In this document: in pieces, positions 7,645 through 61,048 of the stretch
Layout of the letters: each line of letters opens with the position of its first letter
Numbering within the stretch: position 1 is the first letter of the stretch
Assembly: GCA_023230525.1 (NCBI GenBank)
Contig: JALNXE010000002.1
Coordinates: 8,159 to 72,158, forward strand
Reading direction: 5' to 3'
Length of the DNA stretch: 64,000 nucleotides
Source of the DNA: Desulfobulbaceae bacterium
Lineage (GTDB): Bacteria > Desulfobacterota > Desulfobulbia > Desulfobulbales > SURF-16
Translations under genes and position numbers: made by a program
The notes under the pieces: generated by a model
Told to the model about the DNA's origin: nothing
Database searches by the model: none
Seen by the model: only the letters and a program-made list of their open reading frames with translations

Positions 7645-7645
7645 G

Positions 7646-9004
7646 TCACCGGCCTTTGCTCAGCGGCGTGAATCGGGACGGCACGCCGGGTTTGATGCTG
7701 CCGTCGGCCAGCCCGAAAAGAAAGTCGGCCATGGTCCGCCGCTCCTGATCCGTGCCGGAAAAAGGGGGCATGAAGGGCACCATCTCCTGGGTGTGGCCGA
7801 GGATGACGTAGATGCCGTCAGCAGATCTGCCCTGCACCCGGTCAACGATACTGTTGATGCCGCCGATGGTATGGCAGGCCGCGCAGTTCTGGGCAAAGAG
7901 ATAGGCGCCCCGGCTCAGCGGATCGGCCTTTTTGGCGGTGGCGTTGTACCAGTAAGAGCGGGGCAGCATGCCTTCTTTCATGAACAGCGGCGTTTCCTCA
8001 AGCAGCACCTGATTGGCATACATATAGCCGGGCATCAGATAGGGGCCGCGGATAAATTCCCGGATGCGCTCGAACTGGGCCACGAAAAGCATCGCCACCA
8101 CCAGGGCCGGCACCACCAGCAGCCGGGCGGAGATGACGGACCTGCCCAGGGCCAGCAGGCAGAAAAGCAGCAGAAAAACCGCGCCGCCCAGGTTGATCTG
8201 CCGGAACAACTCGGGCTGCTGGGACAGGCGGGAGGTCATGACCGCATACAGGGAATGGGTCTTGAAGGCGGAGGGCACCACGGTGAAATACCAGGCCCCG
8301 GCAAGCAGCGTAACCGCCAGGCTGACCAGCCCCACCCTGCCGAAAAAGGCCAGGGCCTCCCGGCGGAACTGGCGGTCCCGGCGCGTAAAAACAAGGTAGC
8401 CGATGGCAAAGAGGGCGCCCAGCTCATAGGCGATGCCCAGGCGCAGGGCCAGCTGCGGCAGGTAACTCTGGTTGAAGAAGGCCGCCCAGAGCCCCTTGTG
8501 CCACGGCCAGCCGTCCGGGGTGAGCATGAAGCCTAAAATTCCGGTGATCAACAGGGCCGAGCACAGGGCCGTCACCACATAGCCGACCCCGAGATGCAGG
8601 TGCCGTTTCTTCCTTTCCCCGGTCCATTTCCGCCAGGTGTAGTAGTAGATGAGCACGATGATCACCTCGGCGGTGAAAACCCCCCACTCGATAAACCAGG
8701 GCCAGAAAAAGACCCGGAGCAGCGAGCCGATGCCCCGCGGCGCCAGGGCGCTGGTGATCAGCCAGATGCCGACCCCGGTCATGGCGCCGACGCTGGTGGT
8801 CAAGACAACGATAAAGCCGAGAAAATCCCTGGCAAAGACCTCCCAGGCCCCGGAAGAGCGGCGCTGGCCCATATATTCGGCGCACACCACCATGGAAACC
8901 GCGCCAATGGCCAGGCCGTGGCTGATGATGACATGCAGCACGGCATCAAGGGCTATGGTCATGCCGTTGCCGAGATAGGGCACCTGGAAGATCGGAAACT
9001 CCAT
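7646..9004 (-). CDS. Cytochrome bd-like quinol oxidase subunit I (CydA-like) fused to a C-terminal monohaem cytochrome c
   Basis: Start chosen at 'MEFPIFQVPYLGNGMTIALDAVLHVIISHG' (ATG 9004; the track ORF extends to 9133). CydA-like N-terminal His and the 'FFWPWFIEWGVFTAE' region. C-terminal 'CAACH'. Confidence 0.75.
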   Translation of the reverse strand: MEFPIFQVPYLGNGMTIALDAVLHVIISHGLAIGAVSMVVCAEYMGQRRSSGAWEVFARDFLGFIVVLTTSVGAMTGVGIWLITSALAPRGIGSLLRVFFWPWFIEWGVFTAEVIIVLIYYYTWRKWTGERKKRHLHLGVGYVVTALCSALLITGILGFMLTPDGWPWHKGLWAAFFNQSYLPQLALRLGIAYELGALFAIGYLVFTRRDRQFRREALAFFGRVGLVSLAVTLLAGAWYFTVVPSAFKTHSLYAVMTSRLSQQPELFRQINLGGAVFLLLFCLLALGRSVISARLLVVPALVVAMLFVAQFERIREFIRGPYLMPGYMYANQVLLEETPLFMKEGMLPRSYWYNATAKKADPLSRGAYLFAQNCAACHTIGGINSIVDRVQGRSADGIYVILGHTQEMVPFMPPFSGTDQERRTMADFLFGLADGSIKPGVPSRFTPLSKGR

Positions 9005-11155: not shown

Positions 11156-13228
11156 ATGAACTCCGAAGAACTGAAACAACTTGAAAATGATCTCTGGCGC
11201 AGCGCCGACACCCTGCGGGCCAATTCCGACCTCAAGGCCAGTGAGTATTCCACCCCGGTGCTGGGGCTGATCTTCCTGAAATTCGCCGACAACCGCTACC
11301 GCCGGTATGAGAAGGAGATTCTCAAGGAATACGCCAGGCTCAAAGGAACGCGGCGGGAAAAACCCCTCAGCGACATCGCCGTCGAGAAGTCCGGCTTTTA
11401 TCTGCCGGATCATGCCCGCTATGACTATCTGCTCAACCTGCCGGAAGAACAGGACATAGCCAAGGCCATCAAAAAGGCCATGGAGGCCATCGAAGAGTAC
11501 AAGCAGGAGTTGCGCGGCGTCCTGCCCCAGGACGAATATTTCCGGCTGACCCGCACCGACCGGACCATCCCCGGCCAGTTGCTGAAGAACTTCGCCAATA
11601 TCCCGGCCGATGCCGAAGGCGACATCTTCGGCCAGATCTATGAATATTTTCTCGGCAATTTCGCCATGGCCGAGGGCCAGGGCGGCGGTGAGTTTTTTAC
11701 GCCCCGCTCGGTGGTGCGGCTGATGGTGGAGATCATCGAACCCTTCGGCGGCGCGGTCTTTGACCCGGCCTGCGGCTCCGGCGGCATGTTCGTCCAGTCG
11801 GCCAAGTTCATCGACCGCCACCGGGACGAACTGGTCAACGGCGACGGCGGCGATATCTATGTCTACGGCCAGGAAAAGACCCTGGAAACCGTCAAGCTGG
11901 CCAAGATGAACCTGGCGGTCAACGGCCTGCGCGGTGACGTCAAGCAGGCCAACACCTACTCTGATAATGTGCATGACAGCTTCGGCCGCTTTGACTATGT
12001 GCTGGCTAATCCACCCTTCAACGTGGATGAAGTCAATCTCAGCACTGTAGAAAAGGACCGGCGCTTCAACACCTACGGCATCCCCCGCAACAAGAGCAAG
12101 ATCAAGAAGGGCGAGCAGGGCAAGGAGACGGTGCCCAACGCCAACTACCTGTGGATCAACCTCTTCGCCACCTCGCTCAATGACAAGGGCCGGGCCGCCC
12201 TGGTCATGGCCAATTCCGCCTCCGATGCCCGCCACTCCGAGGCCGATATCCGCCGGGCGCTGATCGACAGCAACCTGATCTCCACCATGCTGACCCTGCC
12301 CTCCAACATGTTCTACACCGTCACCCTGCCGGCCACCCTGTGGTTTTTTGACAAGGCCAAGCAGGATGAGCGCATCCTGTTCATCGACAGCCGCAATATC
12401 TTCACCCAGATCGACCGGGCCCACCGGGAATTTTCCGAGGAGCAGATCAATAACATCGCCGTGGTCAGCCACCTGCGCCGGGGCAAGCGCCATAAATTCG
12501 TCCAGCTCATTGACCGCTATTTTGCGCAGGGCATGGAAAAGCTCAGCGAAAACAAGGAGAAGGTCGGCCCGGTGGCCGGGCAGCTCCTGGCGGTGCTGGA
12601 CAACAACGGCGGCAAACAGGCGGTGGCCGATCTGCTGGCCCAGTGGAGCGGGCTGAAAAAACTGCAGGTCCAGCATGATAAGTATCTCGCCGGGGAGGCC
12701 GGCGCAGCAGCCATCGACACAAAAAACGCGGCCCAGCAGCAATTGCGGCAGGCCTTCGACCCATTCTTCACCAGCCTGCACGAGGGGTTGAAACAGCTCG
12801 CCAGGATCATCCGCTGCCATGAAAAGGAACAGGCCGAGGTTGCCAAAAAGACCAACAAACGGCAGGCCGTGGATCGCAAGATCAAAGCCCTGAAAACTGC
12901 TCTGGAGGAACTGCAGGGTGAGGTGAAAACCGCCGAAAGCTTTTTCCGCCACATCCACTGGCTGCAGGAGCGTTTTCCCCAGGCGGAATATGCGGATGTC
13001 ACCGGACTGTGCAGGCTGGCCACCCCGGAGGAGGTCAGTGAGCAGGATTATTCCCTCAATCCCGGCCGCTATGTGGGGGTGGTGATCGAGGAGGATGGCA
13101 AGACTGAGGAGGAGTTTATTGAGGAATTACTGGCGATGAATGAGGAGCTGACGCGGCTGAATAACGCTTCAGGTGAATTAGAGACTGTGATTTCAAAGAA
13201 CATAGGACTGATGGTGGGAGAACAATGA
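11156..13228 (+). CDS. hsdM: Type I restriction-modification system, DNA methyltransferase subunit M
   Basis: 690-aa ORF. HsdM N-terminal domain 'LENDLWRSADTLRANSDLKASEY'. AdoMet motif 'VFDPACGSGGM'. Catalytic 'NPPFN'. 4-nt overlap with hsdS. Confidence 0.95.
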   Translation: MNSEELKQLENDLWRSADTLRANSDLKASEYSTPVLGLIFLKFADNRYRRYEKEILKEYARLKGTRREKPLSDIAVEKSGFYLPDHARYDYLLNLPEEQDIAKAIKKAMEAIEEYKQELRGVLPQDEYFRLTRTDRTIPGQLLKNFANIPADAEGDIFGQIYEYFLGNFAMAEGQGGGEFFTPRSVVRLMVEIIEPFGGAVFDPACGSGGMFVQSAKFIDRHRDELVNGDGGDIYVYGQEKTLETVKLAKMNLAVNGLRGDVKQANTYSDNVHDSFGRFDYVLANPPFNVDEVNLSTVEKDRRFNTYGIPRNKSKIKKGEQGKETVPNANYLWINLFATSLNDKGRAALVMANSASDARHSEADIRRALIDSNLISTMLTLPSNMFYTVTLPATLWFFDKAKQDERILFIDSRNIFTQIDRAHREFSEEQINNIAVVSHLRRGKRHKFVQLIDRYFAQGMEKLSENKEKVGPVAGQLLAVLDNNGGKQAVADLLAQWSGLKKLQVQHDKYLAGEAGAAAIDTKNAAQQQLRQAFDPFFTSLHEGLKQLARIIRCHEKEQAEVAKKTNKRQAVDRKIKALKTALEELQGEVKTAESFFRHIHWLQERFPQAEYADVTGLCRLATPEEVSEQDYSLNPGRYVGVVIEEDGKTEEEFIEELLAMNEELTRLNNASGELETVISKNIGLMVGEQ

Positions 13229-14463
13229 GCGAATGGAATAAAGTTCCCTTCGCGGATCTTCTGGTTGAAAGTAGGGATGGAGAGTGGGGGGAGGGACAAA
13301 GCGCAATTGGACATCAACTTTGCGAAGTTGTAAGAGGTACTGACTTCTCAGGTTTGCATGATCTGAAACTAGAGCTGCCTCGTCGTTGGATTAAGGATCG
13401 TTTGCTAGAACGAAAAAAGCTTCAGCCAGGAGATATTGTATTTGAAATGGCTGGTGGGACTGCAAAGCAATCCACGGGACGGAGTGCTTTACTTAATACA
13501 ACCTTTTTTGAAAAGCATAATAAGGTCCCAGTTCTTTGTGCAAGCTTCTGCCGGCATTTACGTTTAGATCAAGTGCGATATAGCCCCACGTTCATTTATT
13601 ACCTGCTCCAAGGGCTGTATGATGCCGGGTACATGGCTGTTTACAACATTCAACATACTGGCGTTTCCAGGTTTCAGTATACGTCATTTAAAAAAATGAC
13701 GGCTCTTAATGTTCCATCGATGCCCACACAGAAAAAAATCGCCGCCATCCTCTCCGCCTACGACGACCTGATCGAAAACAACAAACGCCGCATTGCCCTG
13801 CTGGAAAAGATGGCCGAGGAGATCTATTGCGAGTGGTTCGTGCGCTTCCGTTTCCCCGGCTATAAGCAGGCGAAGATGGTGAAGGGCGTGCCGGAGGGGT
13901 GGGCACAGAAAAGATTTGGCGATTTTTGCATGCTCCAGCGTGGTTATGACCTCCCTGATAAGCAAGTTGTTCCTGGACCTTACCCGGTTGTAGCCTCAAC
14001 CTCGATCAAGACACATCACCATCAATTTAAAGTAAAGCCTCCGGTTATTACTACGGGAAGATCGGGAAGTTTGGGAACGGTCCAGTATATATCCGAAAAT
14101 GCCTGGCCCTTGAATACGTGCCTGTATGTGAGGAATTTTTATGGCAATTCGAGTTATTTGGTCTATTACACCCTGAAAAACATGGGGCTTGAGAACTTTA
14201 ATGCTGGCGCTGGAGTGCCTTCTTTGAACCGTAATCATATCAACGGGATTTCTATTTTAATCCCCTCCAAACTATTGCAAAAACAGTTTGATTCGATAAT
14301 TGCCCCGCTATTTCATCAAAAAGAGCGGTTGGCGCAGGGAAATACGGTATTGGAGAAAACACGCGACCTCCTCCTCCCCCGCCTCATCTCCGGCAAACTC
14401 CCGGTGGAAAACCTCGACATCCATTTCCCGCCCGGCATGGAGGAGGCTATGCATGAAGGGTGA
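13225..14463 (+). CDS. hsdS: Type I R-M specificity subunit S
   Basis: 412-aa ORF with two lower-GC target-recognition halves. These are separated by the conserved helix 'KIAAILSAYDDLIENNKRRIALLEKMAEEIY' and end in 'LEKTRDLLLPRLISGKL'. Confidence 0.9.
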   Translation: MSEWNKVPFADLLVESRDGEWGEGQSAIGHQLCEVVRGTDFSGLHDLKLELPRRWIKDRLLERKKLQPGDIVFEMAGGTAKQSTGRSALLNTTFFEKHNKVPVLCASFCRHLRLDQVRYSPTFIYYLLQGLYDAGYMAVYNIQHTGVSRFQYTSFKKMTALNVPSMPTQKKIAAILSAYDDLIENNKRRIALLEKMAEEIYCEWFVRFRFPGYKQAKMVKGVPEGWAQKRFGDFCMLQRGYDLPDKQVVPGPYPVVASTSIKTHHHQFKVKPPVITTGRSGSLGTVQYISENAWPLNTCLYVRNFYGNSSYLVYYTLKNMGLENFNAGAGVPSLNRNHINGISILIPSKLLQKQFDSIIAPLFHQKERLAQGNTVLEKTRDLLLPRLISGKLPVENLDIHFPPGMEEAMHEG

Positions 14464-14482
14464 AAAGATGGGTACGGCGGTT

Positions 14483-14905
14483 TTACAACTCCCAGGGATT
14501 GAAGACCTGCGGGTAGGACGCGAAGTCCCGTACGTTGCGGGTGACGATGGTGAGGCCATGGCATTGGGCTATGGCCATGAGGAGCGCATCCATCACCGGC
14601 AGGGGCTGGCCGGCGAGTTCAGCTTGAGCGGCGATCTGTGCCCAGACGTGGAACGCGGCACTATCGAGCGGCAGGATGCGCCCGGCGAAGCGCTGCTCCA
14701 CCTTGCCCAGCCAGGCGGTGAGTCTCTGGCTGCGGCCAGGGTCGGTTGGGCGCAGCTTAAGGATGCCCTTTTCGATCTCGCCCAGGCTGATGAGACTGAT
14801 GAAGAGGCTTTCTTCGTCCTGCTGGTCCAGCCAGTCGATGACGTGTGGTGCGGGAACCTTCCTGGCGTATTCGGAAAGCACGCAGGTGTCGAGCAGCCAA
14901 CTCAT
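14483..14905 (-). CDS. vapC: PIN-domain toxin, VapC family (type II TA)
   Basis: 140-aa ORF beginning 'WLLDTCVLSE' with the conserved acidic residues of the PIN fold. 4-nt overlap with the upstream antitoxin gene. Confidence 0.9.
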   Translation of the reverse strand: MSWLLDTCVLSEYARKVPAPHVIDWLDQQDEESLFISLISLGEIEKGILKLRPTDPGRSQRLTAWLGKVEQRFAGRILPLDSAAFHVWAQIAAQAELAGQPLPVMDALLMAIAQCHGLTIVTRNVRDFASYPQVFNPWEL

Positions 14906-15153
14906 AATTCGAGGTCGCGGCCGGTGTCGCGGCTGCGGGAAAGGTCGAGGTCGTCGATGGCAAGCTCAGGGCGCAGCAGCGCGCTGGAGAGCTTGCCCCG
15001 CTGGCGGGTGAGCCGGGCGTATTCTTCCACCGAAACCACCACCGCCGTCGGCTTGCCGTGCACCGTCACCACCTGGGCCTCGCCGCCCGCCGCCCGTTTG
15101 ATGAGCTGGCTCAGGTTGCCCTTTGCTTCCTGCAGTTGCCATTCGCTGCGCAT
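14902..15153 (-). CDS. Phd/YefM-type antitoxin partner of VapC
   Basis: 83-aa ORF 'WQLQEAKGNLSQLIKRA...VVTVHGKPTAVVVSVEEYARL', typical of the Phd/YefM antitoxin N-domain. Translationally coupled to vapC. Confidence 0.85.
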   Translation of the reverse strand: MRSEWQLQEAKGNLSQLIKRAAGGEAQVVTVHGKPTAVVVSVEEYARLTRQRGKLSSALLRPELAIDDLDLSRSRDTGRDLEL

Positions 15154-15215
15154 AGTAACTCCTCCCTGTTCTGGTCTGTCTGGTCAGAATATAATACAAA
15201 CCCGGCAGGCAGGCA

Positions 15216-18200
15216 ATGGCTAACTTCATCTCCGAAGAGCAGATCGAGCAGGCCATGCTGGAGAAGCTGCACCAGTTCGGTTTTGAGCTGCTGAACTGCC
15301 ACACCGTTGATCCGGCTGATCTGCACGACGGATCGGGACGCCGCGATAAACGGGAGGTGATCTTTGCCGGCCGGCTGCGGGAGGCGGCCATCCGGCTCAA
15401 CCCCGCCATCCCGGAGGCGGCCATTGAGACGGCCCTGGCCCGATTGATTGACAAACGGCCGGCCATGACAGCCATTGCCGCCAACCGGGAGATTGACACC
15501 CTGATCCGGGACGGCATTCCGGTGGAGTTTGACAACGCAGAGGGCAAAAAAGAGCAGGAACGGGTGCGGGTGATCGACTTCAACCAACCGGAGAATAATC
15601 ACTTTCTGGCCGTGTCCCAGCTCTGGATCAGAGGTGAATTGTACTTTCGGCGGCCGGACATCCTGCTCTACATCAACGGCATCCCCCTGGTGTTCATCGA
15701 ACTGAAGAACTCCAACGTCAAACTCAAATCCGCCTATGACGACAACCTCACCAATTACAAAAAGGACATCCCCCAGCTCTTTTTGACCAACGGTCTGTGC
15801 ATCCTCTCCAATGGTATCGAGACCAAAGTGGGCAGCTGCACCGCCGGCTGGGAGCATTTTTTTCCCTGGCTGCGGGTGGCGGATGAAAAGGAAAAGGTGG
15901 ACCGGGAGCGGGTCAGGCGGGAAGGCACCAGCCTGGAATACGTGGCGGCCGGGCTCTGCGCGCCGGGCAGGCTGCTTGACTATGTGGAGAACTTCATCAT
16001 CTTCCACAAGGAAACCCAGAAGATCATCGCCATGAACCACCAGTTCCTCGGCGTCAACCGGGCCTATGCGGTCTTTCTGGAGCGGGCGGGGCGGCAGGGG
16101 AAACTCGGCGTCTTCTGGCACACTCAGGGGTCGGGCAAGAGCTTTTCCATGATCTTCTATAGCCGCAAGATTTTCCGCAAAGTCCCCGGCAACTTCACCT
16201 TTGTGGTGATCACTGACCGCGAGGACCTGGACGGCCAGATCTATCGCAACTTTCTCAACACCGGCACGGTTAAAAAACACGAGGCGGCCCAGCCCAAAAA
16301 CAGCGAGGAGATGCGCAGGTTCCTGGGCCGGAACAAGCGGATCGTCTTCACCCTGATCCAGAAGTTCCGCTATGACAAGGGCAAGGACTACCCGCTGCTC
16401 TCCGACCGGGACGACATCATCGTTATCGTCGACGAGGCGCACCGCACCCAGTACAAGTCCCTGGCCGAAAACATGCGGCATGGGCTGCCCAACGCCCAGT
16501 ACCTGGCCTTCACCGGCACGCCGCTGCTGGGCCGGGAGCGCAAGACCAACGCCTGGTTCGGCGATTACGTCAGCGAGTACAACTTCCAGCAGTCCATGGA
16601 CGAGGGCGCCACGGTGCCGCTTTTCTACCGCAAACGGGTGCCGGAGGTGTGCATCCAGAACGAGGAGTTGAGCGAGGAATTCTACCAGATACTGGAAGAG
16701 GAGAACCTGGACGAGAGCCAGCAGGCCAAGCTGGAGAAAAAATTCGCCGCCGAGATCGAGGTGATCAAGCGCGACGACCGGCTGGAGGCCATTGCCAGGG
16801 ACATCGTCTATCACTTTCCCCGCCGGGGCTATCTGGGCAAGGCCATGGTCGTCGCGGTGGACAAGTTCACGGCGGTGAGGATGCATGACAAGGTGCAGCG
16901 GTTATGGAAGGAGGAGATCAAAACCCTGGTGGGCCGCATCAAGAAGTCGGATAACGATCTGGAAAAGCACCGGCTGAAAAAGCTTGTCGAGTACATGCGA
17001 CGGGTGGAGATGGCGGTGGTGGTCAGCAGCGAGGCCGGGGAGGAAGAGAAATTCAAGGCCCGGAAGCTGGACATCAAACCGCACCGCACTCGCCTGGAGC
17101 AGGTGGACGAACACGGCCATGATATCGAGTACAACTTCAAGGACCCGGAGCACCCGCTGCAGCTGGTCTTTGTCTGCGCCATGTGGCTCACCGGCTTTGA
17201 TGCTCCCACCCTCTCCACCTTGTATCTCGATAAGCCGATGAAGGACCACACCCTGATGCAGACCATTGCCCGGGCCAACCGGGTGACCTCCTTTGCGATC
17301 AACGGGGTGGCGAAGCGCAACGGCGAGATCATCGATTACTACAACGTCTTCCGCAACATGAAAAAGGCGTTGCAGGACTATGCCCGGGGCGAGGAGGGGC
17401 TGGACGAATCCCCGGTCCGGGACAAGGAGGAGCTGTTCCGGCTGCTGGAGGACGCCATCGGCCAGGGTCTGGCCTTCTGCCGGGAACGGCGGATCGACAT
17501 TCCTGAAATCCTCGAAAATCGTAATGTCTTTAAAAACATCGGCCTGTTCAATGCCTACGCCGACACCCTGCTCGGCAATGACGAATGGCGCAAGAGCTTC
17601 AATGTCTATGAAAATACCATCTCGGCGCTCTATGAGGCCTGCAAGCCGGAAATCCTGGGCCGGGGCACCGGCCGGCTGGTGGCGGTTTTCCAGTACCTGC
17701 GCGGGGTGATCGAGAGCATCATCGACCGTCAGGATATCGAGGCGGTGAGCCTGCGCATCAGCGAACTGCTTGACGAAAGCGTGGTGGTCAATAAAACGGA
17801 ACAAGGGGTAGCCGGTCAGGAGACCCCCTCTTTTCAGATCGTCCAGACCGGCAGGACCTGGGATCTCAGCAAAATCGATTTTGACAAGCTCAAGGAAGAT
17901 TTTCGGCATGCCGCCTATAAGAATATCGAAATCGCCGACCTGCGCGCCTTCATTGGCGGCAAGATTACTCAGATGCTGCGGCAGAATATGACCCGTACCG
18001 ATTTTGCCCAAAAGCTGCAGACGATCATCGACGCCTATAACGCCGGCGGCTCGTCCACCGAGAATTATTATGATGACCTGATGAACCTTGCCAGGGGCTT
18101 GCAGGACGAGGATGAGCGGCATATCCGGGAAGGCCTGTCCGAGGACGAACTGGAACTTTTTGATCTGCTGAAAAAGGAGAAAATGACCAGGGAAGAGGAG

Positions 18201-18446
18201 CAAAAGGTCAAGCTGGCCGCCAAGTCCCTGCTGCACCGGCTGCTGGAGGAACATCCCAGGGTGCTGATCCAGGACTGGTACAAGGATACCCATACCAGGG
18301 CCATTGTCCGCTCCACGGTTGAGCGGATTTTGGATGAACAACTGCCCGACAGTTACGACCGGCTGCTGTTCAAGGAAAAATGCGACAGCATCTTTGACAT
18401 GATGCTGCAGTATGCCAACAGCGGCCAGAAGTGGGCGGCCGCCTGA
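15216..18446 (+). CDS. hsdR: Type I restriction enzyme, R (helicase/nuclease) subunit
   Basis: 1076-aa ORF. N-terminal nuclease region 'RPDILLYINGIPLVFIELK'. Walker A-like 'HTQGSGKS'. DEAH box 'IVDEAHRTQ'. Helicase C motifs 'TGFDAP' and 'QTIARANR'. Confidence 0.95.
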   Translation: MANFISEEQIEQAMLEKLHQFGFELLNCHTVDPADLHDGSGRRDKREVIFAGRLREAAIRLNPAIPEAAIETALARLIDKRPAMTAIAANREIDTLIRDGIPVEFDNAEGKKEQERVRVIDFNQPENNHFLAVSQLWIRGELYFRRPDILLYINGIPLVFIELKNSNVKLKSAYDDNLTNYKKDIPQLFLTNGLCILSNGIETKVGSCTAGWEHFFPWLRVADEKEKVDRERVRREGTSLEYVAAGLCAPGRLLDYVENFIIFHKETQKIIAMNHQFLGVNRAYAVFLERAGRQGKLGVFWHTQGSGKSFSMIFYSRKIFRKVPGNFTFVVITDREDLDGQIYRNFLNTGTVKKHEAAQPKNSEEMRRFLGRNKRIVFTLIQKFRYDKGKDYPLLSDRDDIIVIVDEAHRTQYKSLAENMRHGLPNAQYLAFTGTPLLGRERKTNAWFGDYVSEYNFQQSMDEGATVPLFYRKRVPEVCIQNEELSEEFYQILEEENLDESQQAKLEKKFAAEIEVIKRDDRLEAIARDIVYHFPRRGYLGKAMVVAVDKFTAVRMHDKVQRLWKEEIKTLVGRIKKSDNDLEKHRLKKLVEYMRRVEMAVVVSSEAGEEEKFKARKLDIKPHRTRLEQVDEHGHDIEYNFKDPEHPLQLVFVCAMWLTGFDAPTLSTLYLDKPMKDHTLMQTIARANRVTSFAINGVAKRNGEIIDYYNVFRNMKKALQDYARGEEGLDESPVRDKEELFRLLEDAIGQGLAFCRERRIDIPEILENRNVFKNIGLFNAYADTLLGNDEWRKSFNVYENTISALYEACKPEILGRGTGRLVAVFQYLRGVIESIIDRQDIEAVSLRISELLDESVVVNKTEQGVAGQETPSFQIVQTGRTWDLSKIDFDKLKEDFRHAAYKNIEIADLRAFIGGKITQMLRQNMTRTDFAQKLQTIIDAYNAGGSSTENYYDDLMNLARGLQDEDERHIREGLSEDELELFDLLKKEKMTREEEQKVKLAAKSLLHRLLEEHPRVLIQDWYKDTHTRAIVRSTVERILDEQLPDSYDRLLFKEKCDSIFDMMLQYANSGQKWAAA

Positions 18447-54407: not shown

Positions 54408-56474
54408 CTAAGGGCGCAGGTGCGCTATTTTTGGCAAGTTCAGCTCTTGTTCACCCGCCAGATGATGATGGGCAAAGCTGTAGCTGGCAGACTGGTAATA
54501 GGCAATGGCCTGCCTGGCCATGGGCGCATCTTCGGGGATGGGCGCGAGACTGTCAGTCCGCGGGTCCCAGTCATAACTTGCTACCTGCTGCAGGGGTTTG
54601 AGTATGGTCAATTGGTTATCCCGCAGATAACCCAGCTTCTGATAATTGCCGATGAAGGCACGCTCCTCGCCGGGCTGCATGGCGAAGATGTTCTTGCCGT
54701 AGAACTGGCTTTCATAGCTCCAGTGCAGCAGTGCCAGCAGGGTAGGGGCGTAATCGATCTGGCTGCAGAGCTTGTCGATTTTTTCCGGCTGAAACAGCTG
54801 GGGATTGTAAATGATCAGGGGAATCCGGTAATTGTTCACCGGCAGGTCGGTCTCGCCGGCGCTGCCGGCGCAGTGGTCGGCCACGATGACAAAGACCGTA
54901 TCGGCGAACCAGGGTTTTTTAGAGGCCTGGCGGATGAATTCGCCGATGGCATAATCAGTGTACTTGACGGCTCCGCGTCTGCCGGTGTGCGAGGGGATGT
55001 CTATCCGGCCGTCCGGATAGGTGAAGGGCCGGTGGTTGGAGGTGGTCATGACGAAGTGGTAAAAGGGCTTTTCCGCAGCATAGGAGCGGTCCGCCTCCTG
55101 CAGCTCCCAGCTGTAAAGATTTTCATCGCAGGCGCCCCAGACATTGGCAAAGGTAACGGCCTCTGCCGGTACCGCGGCCCGGTCAATGACCCGGTAGCCG
55201 TTATGGCCGAAAAAATAATTCATGTTGTCGAAATACCCGTACCCGCCGTAGAGAAAGGCGGTATCGTAGCCGCGTTCCTGAAAGACCGAGCCCAGGGAAA
55301 ACAGGTGCTCATTGCCGGGACGCTTGATGATGGAGCGGCCAGGGGTGGGCGGCACGGACAGGGTGAGCGCCTCCATGCCCCGGTCAGTGCGGGTGCCGGT
55401 GGCATAGAAGTTAGTGAACAGGATACCCCGGCGGGCCAGATCATCCAGATTCGGGGTCAAATCCGGGTTGTTGCCGAAAGCAGCCAGATACTCGGCGCTC
55501 AGACTCTCAACCGTGATCTGGATGACATTGTAATGCTTTTCCATTCCTGCATTTTTGACGAGCCGGTTGATATCCTTCTCGCCGGGGGTGAGGAAGAGCG
55601 AATCACCGGTTTTGACGAGTTCCCGCACCTGCCGGAAGGCCTCCCCATTGCTCTCGGTCCGGTAAAATCTCTGGAAGTCAAGCTGGTTCTCCCGAAAGGC
55701 GGCAAACAGGGAGTAGCCGCCGTTTTTTGCCAGTTCCTGGTTGTAGTTGTTGGCAAAGGCCGGAACCATCCGGTTATTCAAAGTCAGGGTGAAAAGCACG
55801 GGAAGCAGAAGAACGGCGCTGCCCCAGGCAATCCGGCTTCTGGCCGGAGTTTGCGCGGCAAACCAGATGTTGAGCCAGCCACGGCGGCGCGCCGGGTAAA
55901 AAAGCATGGCGGCCGCCAGCAGCAGGCCGGTGAGGATTGCCGGCAAAGGATATGATTCATAAATGTTGCCGACGACTTCAGTGGTATAGACCAGATAATC
56001 CACTGCGATGAAGTTGAAGCGCGCCCCGAATTCATCCCAGAAAACCCATTCGGCCACCCCCGTAAAAAGCAGTCCGTAGAGCACGAGAAAGAAGAAAAGG
56101 GACGTGACATGGCGGTGCCACCGCGACAGGAATATTTTCTCCGGCAGCAGGCTCAGGTAAACCACCAGGGGGATGACAAAGTAGGAGGCGGCTGCCAGGT
56201 CGTAGAGCAAGCCCCAGAGAAAAATTTTGAGCAGCGCGAGCGGCGCATGGTCAATCAGGGTATATGATTTGCACAGCAGGGCGAACCGGGTCAGCAAGGC
56301 AATGGAGATAAAGGCCAGGCCGAATAGCAATACCCCGCCAAGCCGGTGGGAGAGTATCTTGCGCAGCAAAACCACGGGACCAGCGGGTAATGGCCTGGCG
56401 TTCCGGTCAGCGGCAGGATTGGGCAAAACTGGTTTTTCGTATTTGGTCGGCAAGTGATCTTTCATCATTTTCAT
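54408..56474 (-). CDS. LTA-synthase/phosphoglycerol-transferase-family sulfatase-domain membrane protein
   Basis: Start at 'MKMMKDHLP' (GGAGG RBS; track ORF extends to 56660). Five N-terminal TM segments, then an alkaline-phosphatase-superfamily domain ('ESLSAEY', 'TNFYATGTRTDRGMEA', 'VADHC'). Confidence 0.85.
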   Translation of the reverse strand: MKMMKDHLPTKYEKPVLPNPAADRNARPLPAGPVVLLRKILSHRLGGVLLFGLAFISIALLTRFALLCKSYTLIDHAPLALLKIFLWGLLYDLAAASYFVIPLVVYLSLLPEKIFLSRWHRHVTSLFFFLVLYGLLFTGVAEWVFWDEFGARFNFIAVDYLVYTTEVVGNIYESYPLPAILTGLLLAAAMLFYPARRRGWLNIWFAAQTPARSRIAWGSAVLLLPVLFTLTLNNRMVPAFANNYNQELAKNGGYSLFAAFRENQLDFQRFYRTESNGEAFRQVRELVKTGDSLFLTPGEKDINRLVKNAGMEKHYNVIQITVESLSAEYLAAFGNNPDLTPNLDDLARRGILFTNFYATGTRTDRGMEALTLSVPPTPGRSIIKRPGNEHLFSLGSVFQERGYDTAFLYGGYGYFDNMNYFFGHNGYRVIDRAAVPAEAVTFANVWGACDENLYSWELQEADRSYAAEKPFYHFVMTTSNHRPFTYPDGRIDIPSHTGRRGAVKYTDYAIGEFIRQASKKPWFADTVFVIVADHCAGSAGETDLPVNNYRIPLIIYNPQLFQPEKIDKLCSQIDYAPTLLALLHWSYESQFYGKNIFAMQPGEERAFIGNYQKLGYLRDNQLTILKPLQQVASYDWDPRTDSLAPIPEDAPMARQAIAYYQSASYSFAHHHLAGEQELNLPKIAHLRP

Positions 56475-56867
56475 TTGCAATCCTCCGGCGGCTTGCATGG
56501 AGCAGTGGACCGATTTGCGGCCGTTACCGTTTTGCCGCACTATAAAGTGAGTTGCTGAAGGATCGGTGAAGAAGGTCTTCACGCTTTCTTCATGCAGAGC
56601 GGTCGGCTCAATCGGAGTTGCGGGTGTATTTGTCTGGCGGGCGGGAAGGCCGGGGGGCAAAGAAACAGAAATACGGCCGGAATGTTGCCCCGCTGAATAG
56701 CGCTATTTTGCATAGCCATTCCCTATTTAACATCTTGATTTTTTGGGGATTAACTATTGGACAAAGTGCCGCACCTGGTTTAACAATACGCAACCTTGGG
56801 TACTGGGCGCTAATGATGAGCTTTTTTAAGCATATCAGGGCGCTTTTCATTAAAATGAGATGGATAA

Positions 56868-58703
56868 ATGCAAAAAGTGTCTGCCAGTGTTTCTGCGGAA
56901 AAACCGGTCAACGGGCCTCAGCTCGCCAAAGAGTTACGCATTCAGTCGGAAAAATGCATTGAGTGCAAACTGTGCCGCAAGGAATGCGGGTTTTTGCGGA
57001 AGTACGGCTCTCCCAAACATATTGCCGATACCTATGATCCCGCCTCGACCCAAGGCTGGCTGATGGCCTTTGAGTGCAGCCTCTGCCAGCTCTGCGCCGC
57101 GGTCTGTCCGGTCAAGATCAATCCGGCCGCCATGTTCCTGGAAATGCGCCGTGAGGCCGTGAGCCGCGGGGGCCAGGATTTCACCGATTATGGCAGAATT
57201 CTGGGCTATGAAAAAAAGGGTACCTCCAGGCGTTATTCCTACTACGGCCTGCCGGCAAACTGTGACACCGTCCTGTTTCCCGGCTGCACCTTGCCCGGCA
57301 CCAGACCGGACAAGGTCAAGGCCCTTTTTGATCATCTGCGCCAGACCATTCCCGGCCTCGGCATAGTGCTCGACTGCTGCACCAAACCCTCCCATGACCT
57401 GGGCCGCGACAAATATTTCCAGGCCATGTTCAGTGAGATGCGGGAGTATCTCCTGCGGCACGGGGTGAAAAACGTGCTGGTGGCCTGCCCCAACTGCTAC
57501 CGGGTGTTTAAACAGTATGGCGGCAGCCTGCAGGTGCAAACCGTGTACGAACATCTGGCGGCAACCTCCTTGCCCCAGACGGCAAACATTGCGGGCACGG
57601 TTACCATCCATGACCCCTGCGGCACCAGAAATGAGGAGCAGATCCACGCGGTCATCCGCCGGCTGGCCGGCGAGAAATCACTGACCATCCAGGAGATGAA
57701 ACACCATGGCGCAAGAACCATCTGCTGCGGCGAGGGCGGGTCGGTGGGCTGCGTCAATCCCGATTTTTCCAAGGGCTGGGGCGCGCGGCGCCGAGACGAA
57801 GCGGGCGGGGTCAGGATTCTCACCTATTGCGCGGGCTGCGCCAATTTCTTAGGCTCGCTCAATCCCACCAGCCATATCCTGGATTTACTCTTTGAGCCTG
57901 CGGCGACGCTGGCAGGCACGGTGAAAATTTCCAAGGCCCCCTGGACCTACCTCAACCGTCTGCGGCTTAAAAGTCATTTTAAAAGGCACATCACGGCCGC
58001 GGCGTCCCGGGAAAGGACGTTCAGCGGCGAGGAACGGGCCAGGGGCGGCATGGTCAAACGTCTGGTCATTCTGCTGGCCCTGGTCGGGGTGATCGCAGCT
58101 GTCCGCCTGAGCGGTGCCACCCAATATCTGGAGCAGGAGAAACTGCGCGCCCTGATCGCCGGTTACGGCACCTTGGCGCCCGTCATCTATATGCTGACCT
58201 ATGCCCTGGCGCCCGCGCTGTTTCTGCCCGGCCTGCCGCTGACCATCGCCGGCGGCATCCTGTTCGGCCCGTTCTGGGGGGTGGTCTACACCATTTGCAG
58301 CTCCACCGTGGGGGCCTGCGCGGCCTTTCTGGTTTCCCGCTATATCGGGCGGGAGTGGATCGCGGCCAAGCTCAGCAGCCCCCGCTGGAAGAAGCTTGAC
58401 GAGATGGTGGAAACCCATGGCTGGAAAGCGGTGGCCTTTACCCGGCTGATCCCGCTGTTTCCCTTTAATCTCCTTAATTATGCCTTTGGCCTCACCAGGG
58501 TGAAATTCCTCCATTACGCCCTGGCTACCTTTATCTGCATGCTGCCGGCCTGCATCGCCTATATCGTTTTTTCCAGTTCGCTGCTGAGTGTCCTAAAAGG
58601 GCAGATTACCCCCGAGTTTTTGATCGGCATGGCCCTGATCATCACGGTGTCGCTCCTGCCCGTGGTTTACCGGAAAATCAAGGCACGCAGTGAGAAAAAG
58701 TAA
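56868..58703 (+). CDS. Fusion: HdrD/GlpC-like Fe-S oxidoreductase (2x[4Fe-4S] + 2 CCG domains) + TVP38/TMEM64 (DedA-superfamily) membrane domain
   Basis: 611-aa ORF. 'CIECKLCRKEC' and 'CSLCQLCAAVCP'. CCG-type motifs 'LDCCTKPSHD...ACPNC' and 'TICCGEGGS...YCAGC'. C-terminal 'FLPGLPLTIAGGILFGPFWG...FLVSRYIGR...RLIPLFPFNLLNYAFG'. Confidence 0.8.
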   Translation: MQKVSASVSAEKPVNGPQLAKELRIQSEKCIECKLCRKECGFLRKYGSPKHIADTYDPASTQGWLMAFECSLCQLCAAVCPVKINPAAMFLEMRREAVSRGGQDFTDYGRILGYEKKGTSRRYSYYGLPANCDTVLFPGCTLPGTRPDKVKALFDHLRQTIPGLGIVLDCCTKPSHDLGRDKYFQAMFSEMREYLLRHGVKNVLVACPNCYRVFKQYGGSLQVQTVYEHLAATSLPQTANIAGTVTIHDPCGTRNEEQIHAVIRRLAGEKSLTIQEMKHHGARTICCGEGGSVGCVNPDFSKGWGARRRDEAGGVRILTYCAGCANFLGSLNPTSHILDLLFEPAATLAGTVKISKAPWTYLNRLRLKSHFKRHITAAASRERTFSGEERARGGMVKRLVILLALVGVIAAVRLSGATQYLEQEKLRALIAGYGTLAPVIYMLTYALAPALFLPGLPLTIAGGILFGPFWGVVYTICSSTVGACAAFLVSRYIGREWIAAKLSSPRWKKLDEMVETHGWKAVAFTRLIPLFPFNLLNYAFGLTRVKFLHYALATFICMLPACIAYIVFSSSLLSVLKGQITPEFLIGMALIITVSLLPVVYRKIKARSEKK

Positions 58704-58735: not shown

Positions 58736-59386
58736 ATGAATGGTAACGCCACAGCGGCAACAGCCGGCTACAACTTTAAAAAATCTCTCATTATCAAAGC
58801 CGTGATCGTGGTCTCCCTCACCATGCTTGCCGCCACGGTCTTTTATCTCATCCGCCGCTATTTTTATATCCTTGACGCCTATGTCTATACCGGCGAGTTT
58901 CATCTGCTTTTCATCACGAAAAACATGCAGATGACGAAACTTGAGCTATTTACCGAATACCTGAAACCCATGGGTTTCCTCATGGCCCTGCCTGTCTGTC
59001 TGACCGGGACCTGCTATGCCGGCCTGGACCCGTCATCCTCCCAGCAGGTGCTGATCCGGGCAACCGCTGATGCCTTTGGCGCGCCCATGAGTTTTCTTTT
59101 CGGATTCCTCGGCTTTTTTGTCCTGGGGCTGCTTGCCTTTGGCCTCGGCTCCCTGATCTTCGGGGATATCGTGCCGCTGGTAACCAAAAAATGCTACCCG
59201 GAGTATCTGGACAAACTGAAGAAACCCGCTTTGCTGCTTTTTCCCATGGCCTTTGCCCTGCCCTTTGTGCCGATCATCATAGCTTCCGTAATGGCCGCCA
59301 TTGTCAAGGTCCCTTTTGCGAGGCTGCTGCAATACATGCTGGCCGGTTTCATGCTGCGCACCCTTGCCCTGGTGCTGCTGCAGTGA
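58736..59386 (+). CDS. Hypothetical polytopic membrane protein
   Basis: 216-aa ORF with 4-5 hydrophobic segments, 'LPVCLTGTCYAG' and 'VPFARLLQYMLAGFMLR'. Start uncertain (internal ATGs). No family recognised. Confidence 0.5.
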   Translation: MNGNATAATAGYNFKKSLIIKAVIVVSLTMLAATVFYLIRRYFYILDAYVYTGEFHLLFITKNMQMTKLELFTEYLKPMGFLMALPVCLTGTCYAGLDPSSSQQVLIRATADAFGAPMSFLFGFLGFFVLGLLAFGLGSLIFGDIVPLVTKKCYPEYLDKLKKPALLLFPMAFALPFVPIIIASVMAAIVKVPFARLLQYMLAGFMLRTLALVLLQ

Positions 59387-59437
59387 AAAAAGAGAGAGGA
59401 CGGGCAAGGGGCTTTTCAATCAAACAAGGAGAACAAG

Positions 59438-60310
59438 ATGAAAATAAATCAAGAAGGTAAATGCTCCTGCTGCACCGGGGGCTCCCGATCGGTGCTGCTC
59501 GGCAGGGCCGCTGATGCAGGTCACGAGACGGGCCATACCGGCGGCATGACCAGGGGAGAATTTCTCAAGGTGGTTGGCCTCGGCATCCTGGGCCTCAGCA
59601 CCATACCCGGCACCAAGGCCTATGCCGCGGCGGAGAAGGACGGCAATATCAAGATGGTCCAGGGGAAAAACGACCGCATGGTGGTTGACCTGGAAAACCG
59701 GGAAATCCGGGTTTCCACGGACATCACCAAGGACCCGTCCAAACCATCGGTCATTGACTGGGGCCGGAGATTCCAGGCCTTTTTCGGTACGTATGGCGGC
59801 AAGATGGAAAAATTTTTCGTGTTCACCACCGATGTTTCCCGCACGGATATCGATAAGGCCATCCAGGAAATCGGCATCAAGTCCCGCCGCCAGATTCCCA
59901 TGGAGGAGGTGGAGCAGCGCAAAGGGCTGAAGGCCACCACCACCATGGCTGATTATCTGGACGGCGATCCGGTCATTGTCATCGTGCGGTTCATCAAGGA
60001 CGGCAAAATCGTTGAAACGGCCCTGGAAGATCTGATCGAGGAAAAAATCATGGTCGATGGCGCCGAGGTGGTAAAGCCCTATACCCCGCACTGGGTTTAC
60101 CACGGCACCGGCGAGGCGATCACCTTTCCCTCCGGCTGCTGCGTCTGCCCCTCCGACTGCAACGGCGGCATTATCACCGATAACGTCCTGCCGCTGAAAA
60201 CCACGGAAAACTACTACCGTATCAACTGGGAGCGGATGCCGCCCGTCGGTTCCAAGGCGGAAATCATCATCAAATCCATTTACAGCTCGGCCAGGCACGC
60301 AACCATCTGA
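59438..60310 (+). CDS. Cys-rich exported protein of unknown function (Tat-like signal with single Arg)
   Basis: 290-aa ORF with a strong AAGGAGAA RBS. N-terminal 'KCSCCTGG...HETGHTGG', then 'TRGEFLKVVGLGILGLSTIPGTKAYA'. C-terminal 'PSGCCVCPSDCNGG'. Confidence 0.6.
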   Translation: MKINQEGKCSCCTGGSRSVLLGRAADAGHETGHTGGMTRGEFLKVVGLGILGLSTIPGTKAYAAAEKDGNIKMVQGKNDRMVVDLENREIRVSTDITKDPSKPSVIDWGRRFQAFFGTYGGKMEKFFVFTTDVSRTDIDKAIQEIGIKSRRQIPMEEVEQRKGLKATTTMADYLDGDPVIVIVRFIKDGKIVETALEDLIEEKIMVDGAEVVKPYTPHWVYHGTGEAITFPSGCCVCPSDCNGGIITDNVLPLKTTENYYRINWERMPPVGSKAEIIIKSIYSSARHATI

Positions 60311-60409
60311 TGCCTGCCGGATAAGGCCGGTCAAACGCTGCAAGGAGAGGGGGGCGGTGCATCGCCCTTCCTCTCTATTGCCGTCAACCTCTTTTAAGCC
60401 ATCATCGCC

Positions 60410-61048
60410 ATGCAGGGAACAACCTATTCCGACAGTCTCGGAGACATCCGGAGCATTGCCTCGCGCCTGACCGCTGTTGAACAGCTGGTCAGGGACAGCG
60501 TCATGGCGCAGATCATCGACCGCGGCGGCCCGGTGACCGCCCGCGGCCTGAAACAGGTGGCGGCCCTGCGCAACCTGGATGTGGAGGAGCAGCTTGCCGC
60601 CCTGCTCAAAAAACGGACCATTGTGGTGAACCCGGAGGGATACATCACCTTTTCCTATCCGGTTTCAGCCCTGCCCACCAGTCACCGGGTGACGCTCGCG
60701 GACGGCAGATCGTTTTATGCCATGTGCGCGGTGGACGCCCTGGGGGCCGCCTTCACCTTCAACCAGGATATCAGGGTGGACTCCCAGTGCAGCCACTGCC
60801 GGCAGCCGGTGCATCTGGAAATAGGCAATCAGCGGATTATCGATCTGCAGCCCGCCGCAACCCAGGTGCTCCACGTCGATCTGAACCGGTATGACAACTG
60901 GTCGGGCAACTGCTGAAACATCATGAACTTCTTCTGTAGGAAGAAACATTATGAACAGTGGCTGGCACAGAGGCAGGTCACGCTAAAGCATTTCTGTCTG
61001 ACCGCGGCACAGGCGCTGCAGGTGGCGCAGATGCTGTTTGCCCGGTAG
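60410..61048 (+). CDS. MerB-like (alkylmercury lyase family) protein with in-frame UGA (60914-60916), probable selenocysteine
   Basis: The track ORF ends at TGA 60916, but the frame stays open to TAG 61046-61048. 'YAMCAVDALG' parallels MerB 'YAWCALDTL'. Read-through 'GNC-U-NIMNFFC...YEQWLAQ' parallels MerB '[11 protein letters not shown]...AEDWASK'. Confidence 0.7.
60922..60953 (+). promoter_or_regulatory. SECIS-like hairpin downstream of the in-frame UGA
   Basis: Lower stem CAUG/UAUG, internal loop, upper stem UUCUUC/GAAGAA, apical loop UGUAG. The apex is about 21 nt from the UGA. Confidence 0.5.

Follow-up and report, generated by a model that had tools for sequence, protein, structure and literature searches.

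A YdjX-type VTT/DedA membrane domain fused to a heterodisulfide reductase-like iron–sulfur module in anaerobic bacteria: architecture, spread and a possible link to sulfur or selenium

DedA/VTT membrane proteins, among which are human TMEM41B and VMP1, are nearly universal. In this report we focused on one such protein encoded in a 64,000-nucleotide stretch of a Desulfobulbaceae genome (assembly GCA_023230525.1, contig JALNXE010000002.1, positions 8,159 to 72,158; hereafter the window), where an ATG-to-stop open reading frame (ORF) at 56868-58703 on the + strand specifies a fusion protein of 611 aa with recognizable Pfam and NCBIfam domains. In this protein a presumably cytoplasmic iron–sulfur (Fe-S)/CCG module is followed by a linker helix and by a YdjX-type VTT/DedA domain, which we call VTT1. 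The gene heads an operon in the order CCG-VTT1, VTT2, YdjY, SaoL, and its product is one member of a widespread family in which the same two modules have been joined repeatedly and in different orders.

The N-terminal half of the protein has the sequence and fold features of HdrD/HdrB-type CCG proteins. With Pfam domains called at gathering scores, its ferredoxin-like domain (aa 27-84; 56946-57119, + strand) is matched by both Fer4_8 (37.6 bits versus a cutoff of 27) and Fer4_17 (35.1 bits versus 22.2), carries two CX2CX2CX3C motifs (C30/33/36/40 and C70/73/76/80) and is predicted to hold two cubane [4Fe-4S] clusters. Two CCG-type repeats follow. The second (aa 245-328; 57600-57851, + strand) is detected by PF02754 (37.1 bits versus a cutoff of 20.6), aligns to the CCG domains of EtfD and HdrB, and has its five cysteines at C251, C286, C287, C321 and C324, with the string 'CCGEGG'. 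The first (aa 134-216; 57267-57515, + strand) has C140, C170, C171, C207 and C210, with 'CCT' in place of 'CCG' in 'DCCTKPS'; no separate Pfam stretch is scored for it in the fusion protein, and BLASTP gives no internal-repeat signal between the two CCG halves. We accept it as a CCG repeat because its cysteine pattern is invariant, because alignments to NF045663, TfrB and LdhH span aa 134-325, and because Pfam scores two CCG stretches in the homologues P0150 and P0235; an alignment to EtfD (9ojn) covers it as well. In conservation alignments, made with 25 homologues and then with 103 homologues of 58-86% identity, all eight ferredoxin-type and all ten CCG cysteines are invariant in the larger set, and neither CCG motif has lost its 'CC' pair or any of its five cysteines, as in catalytic HdrB. 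Two Hdr-type noncubane clusters are predicted at these motifs. Such clusters provide the active-site chemistry by which heterodisulfide reductases split S-S bonds. The first-pass annotation of this DNA had placed two ferredoxin-type and two CCG clusters in the N-terminal ~390 aa, and both the hidden Markov model (HMM) matches and the invariance across 103 homologues bear this out.

The C-terminal half is, by sequence, a YdjX-type DedA domain. It is reached through a linker helix (aa 356-385, 'KAPWTYLNRLRLK') and a first transmembrane (TM) helix (aa 396-416), together at 57933-58115 on the + strand, which are supported by conservation (P358, T360, Y361, N363, R364, L367, K368, R381 and R383 show no or almost no variation), by the AlphaFold model (helices 359-374 and 394-414) and by a hydropathy maximum at 400-412. 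The VTT/DedA core (aa 453-570; 58224-58577, + strand) matches PF09335 with 101.5 bits versus a cutoff of 33.9 (E 5.9e-29, model positions 1-122 of 123). Over ~200 aa this half is 34% identical to YdjX (E 3e-30) and 31% to YdjZ (E 2e-24), the two E. coli DedA paralogues compared, which assigns it on sequence grounds to the COG0398/YdjX/TVP38 branch of the DedA superfamily. It has two re-entrant-loop motif regions (F466-G467-P468; R526-L527-P529-P532; N534/N537/Y538), and G462/G463, F466-G467-P468, R526, L527, P529, P532, N537, Y538 and G541 are kept in fused relatives, stand-alone relatives and YdjX. The strings once quoted as a TVP38 signature are present and are these conserved re-entrant-loop motifs. 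HMM analysis confirms the assignment of the Fe-S/CCG module as HdrD/GlpC/LldE-like and of the VTT domain as TVP38/YdjX-type.

Although it was first flagged as unusual, the fusion is not rare; it defines an old family of considerable size among anaerobes of the Thermodesulfobacteriota and Nitrospirota, bacteria that reduce sulfate and metals. A word-indexed search across 5.8 billion proteins returned more than 120 clusters with 59-100% identity, full-length coverage and the same Pfam set, and a protein identical to that in the window is found in a Desulfobulbaceae metagenome-assembled genome. A scan of one genome per species gave 587 relatives, and ~55 of the best 80 are full-length fusions. 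Among the carriers are Desulfobulbaceae/Desulfocapsa, Desulfuromonas/Geobacter/Trichloromonas, Syntrophales, Syntrophorhabdus, Syntrophobacteraceae, Desulfobacterales, Desulfarculus and Thermodesulfovibrionales/Nitrospirota, and in an exhaustive HMMER search (1.84 billion representatives) the fused family extends down to ~34% identity. The chance that two genes were joined here by a sequencing or assembly error is vanishingly small, because the same architecture is uninterrupted in more than 120 clusters from independent projects, because those ~55 species-level genomes, from several classes and two phyla, share it, and because the linker and the first TM helix are conserved. No stop or frameshift occurs at the junction in any relative examined, and we rejected an artefact on the cluster counts, the species genomes and the conserved linker. 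The architecture is already known under generic database names, 'VTT domain-containing protein' at NCBI and 'YdjX (TVP38/TMEM64 family)/Fe-S oxidoreductase' at JGI, and DedA fusions to disulfide oxidoreductases of the flavin adenine dinucleotide (FAD) type have been published (PMC10127716). In the literature searched there is no description of a CCG-VTT/DedA fusion, of its permutations, of VTT2 or of the neighbourhood network reported below. The earlier remark that DedA proteins normally stand alone is broadly right, as ~90% of COG0398 DedAs carry PF09335 alone (PMC10127716).

Comparison with characterized CCG proteins highlights important similarities and differences. The closest solved structure by sequence is mycobacterial EtfD (9ojn, E 1.5e-18), and Foldseek searches with the AlphaFold model (mean predicted local distance difference test [pLDDT] score 78.7, ~90 for the Fe-S half) return EtfD 9ojn (E 2.5e-10), LutA (E 1.4e-5) and HdrB (E 1e-3). 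Like HdrD of HdrDE and like EtfD, the fusion protein has two cubane motifs and two CCG domains joined to a membrane part. The main difference is that the membrane parts in HdrE and EtfD are heme-b proteins serving methanophenazine or menaquinone, whereas the fusion has a heme-less VTT fold. A true HdrDE reductase has a heme-b membrane subunit (HdrE or NarI-like) and belongs to CoM-S-S-CoB metabolism. Next to the fusion, neither the window nor any of 57 fusion loci has a gene of the cytochrome-b type (ORFs around 54 fusion loci were clustered and their representatives annotated, and marker genes were tallied over 57). Judging from the missing heme-b partner and from its bacterial host lineages, the protein is not an HdrDE reductase. 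The first CCG motif of EtfD has lost one cysteine and holds a linear [3Fe-4S] cluster, its clusters forming an electron wire (bioRxiv 10.1101/2025.05.14.654035), unlike the window fusion, which keeps all ten CCG cysteines as HdrB does. Since both motifs retain the 'CC' pair and five cysteines while the wire protein EtfD has lost one, the fusion may have Hdr-like catalytic potential. The best curated match to aa 21-410 is NF045663 'diclust_near_Sec' (225.9 bits versus a cutoff of 530). Proteins of that family have an N-terminal GltD-like NADPH/FAD domain of ~300 aa, which is absent from the window fusion; the latter covers model positions 297-706 of 759 only and bears a VTT domain instead. With a score far below the cutoff and without the flavin domain, it is not an NF045663 member.

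The gene directly downstream of the fusion (58736-59386, + strand) encodes VTT2, a divergent VTT-like membrane protein of 216 aa that matches PF09335 with 27.2 bits, below the cutoff. Its family is rare (13 clusters), and 16 of 18 members match PF09335, again below threshold. VTT2 is 30% identical (E 2e-24) to the C terminus of the 842-aa fusion P0102 and is also fused in frame in P0145, P0150 and P0305. A MAFFT alignment of the triple fusions set the VTT2 rows onto VTT1, and hhalign, run with the VTT2 family against the fusion alignment, aligned the right motifs with a probability of only 3.9%. We call VTT2 VTT-like because of the sub-threshold Pfam matches in 16 of 18 members and the in-frame fusions, and it is probably the partner of VTT1.

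The modules occur in several further arrangements. The order CCG-VTT1-VTT2 is seen in proteins of 831-855 aa (P0010, P0102, L021 and L025), VTT1-CCG-VTT2 in P0145 and P0305, and CCG-VTT2 in P0150. The reverse order VTT1-CCG (~610-655 aa) is represented by more than 100 clusters, including the cultured Megalodesulfovibrio gigas and Desulfosoma caldarium, as well as Desulfonatronospira and Desulfobacter. In locus L072, CCG, VTT and rhodanese are separate adjoining genes. In L074 and L071, a stand-alone VTT relative lies beside an NF045663 protein (530.5 bits in L074) or a near-member (502.4 bits in L071), that is, a GltD-like NADPH/FAD domain with a dicluster and CCG part; L074 is an operon in which the true NF045663 member and the stand-alone VTT relative are accompanied by a double rhodanese and a TIGR04282 glycosyltransferase. 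Such a separate NADPH/FAD-dicluster-CCG protein adjoins stand-alone VTT relatives in 4/25 loci and fused ones in 0/57, as one would expect if the CCG module, where it is fused, takes the place of a separate NF045663-type protein. All these arrangements are compatible with a predicted topology in which the VTT domain has both ends in the cytoplasm, as has reportedly been shown by experiment for TMEM41B.

That CCG and VTT have been fused independently, in either order and also with VTT2, argues that they are specific partners. The first-pass annotation had suggested redox coupling or redox sensing of whatever the membrane domain moves, and the coupling is now strongly supported by comparative evidence: both fusion orders, split adjacent genes and a complementary distribution make such coupling likely. 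A simpler possibility is that the VTT domain serves only as the anchor of an HdrD-like reductase acting on a soluble cytoplasmic substrate, or that the Fe-S module only senses redox state. HdrD-like proteins often use diverse membrane anchors, one CCG module (P0151) is fused to a response-regulator receiver domain, and the HMMER search found many stand-alone copies of the module (350-400 aa), all of which would fit. We nonetheless consider a passive anchor or sensor improbable, since conservation of the VTT half, all transporter-type re-entrant-loop motifs included, equals or exceeds that of the Fe-S half, since repeated joining in both orders and to VTT2 speaks for specificity, and since four Fe-S clusters exceed the usual needs of sensing.

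What the two modules are joined to elsewhere gives a first indication of function. Versions of the CCG module at 44-51% identity occur, besides the receiver-domain protein, in fusions with a TM helix and two rhodanese domains (P0165), with a single rhodanese (P0163) and with the TM domain of an MprF-type flippase (P0153). The closest relatives of the VTT half are also fused to rhodanese (L079 and L081). Taken together, these alternative fusions indicate transfer of sulfur/selenium and, with less weight, a connection with lipids. Other close relatives of the VTT half (P0273 and L064:8127-9590) are fused to the uncharacterised DUF3047 (268 bits).

The two remaining genes of the window operon encode a YdjY-domain protein and SaoL. 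The first (59438-60310, + strand; 290 aa; NF040466, 82.2 bits versus a cutoff of 50) has 'CSCC' near its N terminus and a Cys-rich 'GCCVCPSDC' near its C terminus, and is probably extracytoplasmic. It is 62.5% identical from residue 1 to the YdjY beside a reverse-order fusion in L088, which is why we read the + strand here. An overlapping antisense ORF (59420-60343, 307 aa) is longer and would mislead length-based gene calling. SaoL (60410-61048, + strand; NF040728, 182.2 bits versus a cutoff of 140) is a MerB-like organometallic lyase selenoprotein with an in-frame TGA at 60914-60916, giving a Cys-Sec pair (C168-U169) followed by 43 residues up to a TAG stop. The sequence after the UGA ('UNIMNFFCRKKHY...') is conserved as 'N(I/V)MNFFC.KKHY' in L021 and L088, where the same C-U read-through occurs. 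Truncation of SaoL at CU has been described (Haft & Gwadz, bioRxiv 10.1101/2022.07.06.499078), and standard gene callers would cut the protein short at the UGA. A hairpin directly 3' of the UGA (60910-60961, + strand; minimum free energy -13.4 kcal/mol, z -2.47, 2/200 shuffles as good) is a candidate bacterial selenocysteine insertion sequence (SECIS) element. A scan of the operon for promoters and terminators returned nothing above chance. SaoL is part of the SAO locus, a set of nine genes saoT, E, C, X, L, B, P, A and D (Haft & Gwadz, bioRxiv 10.1101/2022.07.06.499078). Among ORFs at 54.4-62.3 kb, the part of the window scanned for Sao models, none other than SaoL was matched, so the fusion neighbourhood, with SaoL alone next to the fusion, does not look like a full SAO locus.

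Neighbourhoods across loci reinforce the link to chalcogens, at least 45 of the 57 fusion loci having a neighbour of sulfur (S)/selenium (Se)/arsenic (As) type. The most frequent are YnjE-like double-rhodanese lipoproteins (15-19 loci, often in 2-4 copies; 30% identity to E. coli YnjE, E 1e-35) and a YdjY-domain gene that adjoins the fusion in 17/57 loci. They are followed by a 283-aa outer membrane (OM)-like protein without assignment (15 loci), a small rhodanese resembling the N-terminal, rhodanese part of TsoB (13 loci), MauE/DoxX (11 loci), the ArsS radical-SAM (seleno)protein TIGR04167 (8-11 loci; 336.7 bits versus a cutoff of 300), 'arsenosugar biosynthesis' glycosyltransferases (TIGR04283-type in 7 loci and TIGR04282-type in 9), a BioB-like radical-SAM protein (9 loci) and double-cubane reductases (6 loci). 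SelD is found in 6 loci and YedF in 5, over four classes, and SaoL in the window, L021 and L088. By our own rough estimate, which takes a 16-kb neighbourhood as ~0.4% of a 4-Mb genome and has no formal background behind it, ~0.2 selD genes would be expected by chance versus the 6 observed. Reverse-order fusions have similar company: in M. gigas a rhodanese adjoins, in Desulfosoma two rhodaneses abut, and in L088 the order is selD (366 bits) - yedF (TIGR03527, 208 bits) <> VTT1-CCG-VTT2 - saoL - ydjY, selD and the YedF-type gene (TusA plus DsrE-like) at 7062-8677 on the - strand lying divergently beside the fusion. This last arrangement is a candidate compact selenium-handling island. The partners in L088 are those of the window operon, and the reverse-order family as a whole confirms the neighbourhoods independently.

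A cluster of ~10-14 genes around the fusion recurs in Geobacter, Desulfuromonas, Desulfobacterales and Syntrophobacteraceae genomes (L008, L009, L020, L026, L028, L029, L033-L035, L039, L040, L042, L046, L050, L051, L053 and L054). It contains several periplasmic rhodaneses, the 283-aa OM-like protein, a 171-aa protein likewise without assignment, ArsS, the BioB-like radical-SAM protein, three family 2 glycosyltransferases (GT2), one GT-C glycosyltransferase and MauE, and has the look of a so far undescribed pathway to a glycoconjugate that contains sulfur, selenium or arsenic. Just downstream of the fusion in a Desulfocapsa genome (L003/L004, 12008-12151), 48 residues matching the YdjY C terminus (67% identity) are left over, which suggests a recent loss of partner genes.

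Two known systems help to interpret these associations. First, the E. coli cluster ydjX-ydjY-ydjZ-ynjA (AhpD-like thiol protein)-ynjBCD-ynjE (rhodanese) resembles the fusion loci in that two VTT proteins, YdjY and a periplasmic multi-rhodanese recur together. The ydjXYZ set of E. coli type is present in the window, where VTT1, VTT2 (sub-threshold) and YdjY are consecutive on the + strand, although the gene order differs. The E. coli cluster has no CCG module, the AhpD-like CxxC protein YnjA filling the cytoplasmic thiol-redox slot; the YdjY of the window is only distantly similar to that of E. coli by BLAST, although both match NF040466; and the ydj-ynj cluster is itself uncharacterised. Second, sulfur-relay systems (sHdr, TsuA/YedE-YedF) join Hdr-like CCG proteins, rhodanese/TusA/DsrE carriers and YeeE/YedE-type transporters. 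The fusion loci share this logic of a membrane importer, persulfide carriers and a CCG enzyme, and several of them have YedF and SelD as neighbours. The differences are that the membrane component is YeeE/YedE in sulfur relays and a DedA/VTT fold here, and that sHdr is an sHdrAB1B2C1C2 complex whereas the CCG protein of the window is a single HdrD-like chain.

We infer a link to sulfur or selenium from the CCG-rhodanese and VTT-rhodanese fusions together with the S/Se/As-type neighbours, and we tentatively propose, with slightly less than even confidence, that VTT1 and VTT2 form a membrane conduit and that the cytoplasmic Hdr-type reductase to which it is coupled splits S-S, S-Se or related bonds in a chalcogen cargo. 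For this cargo selenium is the foremost specific candidate, sulfur or arsenic species also being possible. The N-terminal 390 residues would lie in the cytoplasm, hard-wired to VTT1, itself most likely paired with VTT2. YdjY and/or the YnjE-like rhodaneses would capture thiol-reactive chalcogen species outside the cell, either sulfane sulfur or selenium as a selenotrisulfide- or perselenide-like species, and the cargo would move through or along the VTT1/VTT2 pair. Electrons would arrive from a soluble donor via the two cubane clusters, and the CCG clusters would reductively cleave the S-S or S-Se bond and release the cargo on the cytoplasmic side. In the unfused systems the donor would evidently be NAD(P)H, via the GltD-like domain. 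The product (HS-/HSe- or a carrier-bound form) could then feed SelD/YedF, ArsS-type radical-SAM enzymes or SaoL. In this scheme the cluster types, the topology, the VTT1/VTT2 pairing, the nature of the cargo and the direction of electron and cargo flow are all to be read as predictions. A more specific and clearly more doubtful version would make CCG-VTT1/VTT2/YdjY a dedicated selenium acquisition machine of anaerobes: selenium captured outside by YdjY and rhodaneses would cross the membrane via the VTT pair as a thiol adduct, and reduction of its S-Se bond by the Hdr-type clusters would deliver selenide to YedF/SelD, SaoL and ArsS.

Several observations weigh against the proposal of chalcogen transfer. 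None of the marker neighbours is present in 12/57 fusion loci, and in two distant homologue loci on long contigs (P0091 and P0012) the gene lies among unrelated genes. In the AlphaFold model the VTT half is poorly supported (pLDDT 37-80), with low confidence in the second re-entrant loop. Three cysteines of the membrane half (484, 557 and 562) are conserved among close homologues and vary in the wider fused family, where C484 is kept in 34/53, C557 in 39/53 and C562 in 45/53; L021 lacks both C557 and C562, as do YdjX and YdjZ. Because the membrane-domain cysteines are not universal, they do not allow us to assert a thiol relay within the conduit, and we have downgraded that idea.

The same cysteines bear on a different direction of flow, in which the CCG module would supply reducing equivalents outward through the VTT conduit, as DsbD/CcdA do, to keep the cysteines of periplasmic rhodaneses and YdjY reduced or to discharge their persulfides. 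Periplasmic rhodaneses and YdjY are indeed the commonest neighbours, in P0165 one TM helix connects periplasmic rhodaneses with the cytoplasmic CCG module, the small rhodanese of the neighbourhoods is similar to the corresponding part of TsoB, a rhodanese/DsbD-like selenoprotein, and the MauE/DoxX genes as well as the cysteines conserved in close homologues would suit such a relay. We think this quite unlikely, however, since the uneven retention of these cysteines means that a two-cysteine relay is not a property of the family, and since L021, YdjX and YdjZ do without C557 and C562. Moreover, we know of no DedA fold through which electrons or thiols are relayed.

The most serious competitor to chalcogen transfer concerns lipids, a reading that we consider possible and yet rather unlikely. 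On this account VTT, alone or with VTT2, would flip or scramble a polyprenyl-phosphate(-sugar), a phospholipid or an isoprenoid quinone. The corresponding role of the Fe-S/CCG module would be to gate this activity according to redox state or to reduce a lipid-soluble acceptor bound in the VTT cavity, comparable to the delivery of electrons from EtfD to menaquinone. COG0398 DedAs are viewed, by homology only, as probable phospholipid scramblases; they resemble eukaryotic scramblases, and their DedA relatives are undecaprenyl phosphate (UndP) flippases or phospholipid scramblases (PMC10127716). Glycosyltransferases of a pathway type that needs a flippase are neighbours in 12-13 fusion loci (polyprenyl-phosphate-sugar-synthase-like GT2 in 13, MptB-like GT-C in 12 and cellulose-synthase-like GT2 in 12), and together with the MprF-type flippase fusion in P0153 they are no less compatible with a lipid or polyprenyl-phosphate substrate than with a chalcogen cargo. 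The closest solved structure, EtfD, is an HdrD-like module that reduces menaquinone. Set against this, COG0398 proteins lack the residues tied to UndP binding and to coupling with the proton motive force (PMC10127716), the fusion has no heme-binding membrane domain, unlike EtfD and HdrE, and both of its CCG motifs have the catalytic-type five-cysteine set rather than the wire-type set of EtfD. A lipid substrate alone would leave the rhodanese fusions and the SelD, YedF, SaoL and YdjY neighbours unexplained, and the window operon and most loci contain no glycosyltransferases.

The proposal of chalcogen transfer also bears on how this DedA branch is viewed. The COG0398 DedAs that are fused are most often joined to glutathione/mercuric-reductase-type disulfide oxidoreductases (PF07992/PF02852; Todor et al., mBio 2023, PMC10127716), a finding that, like the E. 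coli cluster, agrees with the proposal. Such fusions share with the window fusion the DedA subfamily and its union with reductases, in their case of disulfides, selenotrisulfides or Hg-thiolates. The differences are that the published partner is an FAD/NAD(P)H flavoenzyme and not an oxygen-sensitive Fe-S/CCG (Hdr-type) module, that VTT2 is an additional component of the window-type system, and that the published account ties COG0398 to aerobic metabolism (PMC10127716), whereas the carriers of window-type fusions are strict anaerobes. The prevailing published view links the YdjX/TVP38 branch to aerobic metabolism and phospholipid scrambling; here it is found hard-wired to an Hdr-type Fe-S reductase in strict anaerobes, repeatedly and in permuted orders. 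The testable hypothesis gained is that sulfur or selenium species are imported or handed off reductively. For this hypothesis the cultured reverse-order carriers M. gigas and D. caldarium are available, and it addresses what COG0398 DedAs move, by which route selenium reaches SelD in anaerobes, and what the ydjXYZ-ynj cluster of E. coli does. Ledgham et al. (2005, cited in PMC10127716) are reported to have linked a DedA protein to selenite resistance, which agrees with the proposal as well. If the idea of selenium acquisition were true, it would provide the first specific small-molecule transport function for the YdjX/TVP38 DedA branch, and the DedA-selenite link and the FAD-disulfide-reductase fusions of aerobes would be the same system with a different reductase.

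Two other regions of the window deserve a mention. Divergent from the fusion, at 54408-56660 on the - strand, lies a gene for a 750-aa polytopic membrane protein with a domain of the sulfatase/LtaS/phosphoglycerol-transferase type (PF00884, 141.6 bits). This lipid-headgroup transferase, which acts outside the membrane, is not a recurrent neighbour of fusion loci. Farther away, at 11156-18446 on the + strand, three large ORFs of 690, 412 and 1076 aa could, judging from their sizes and order alone, form a type I restriction-modification system.

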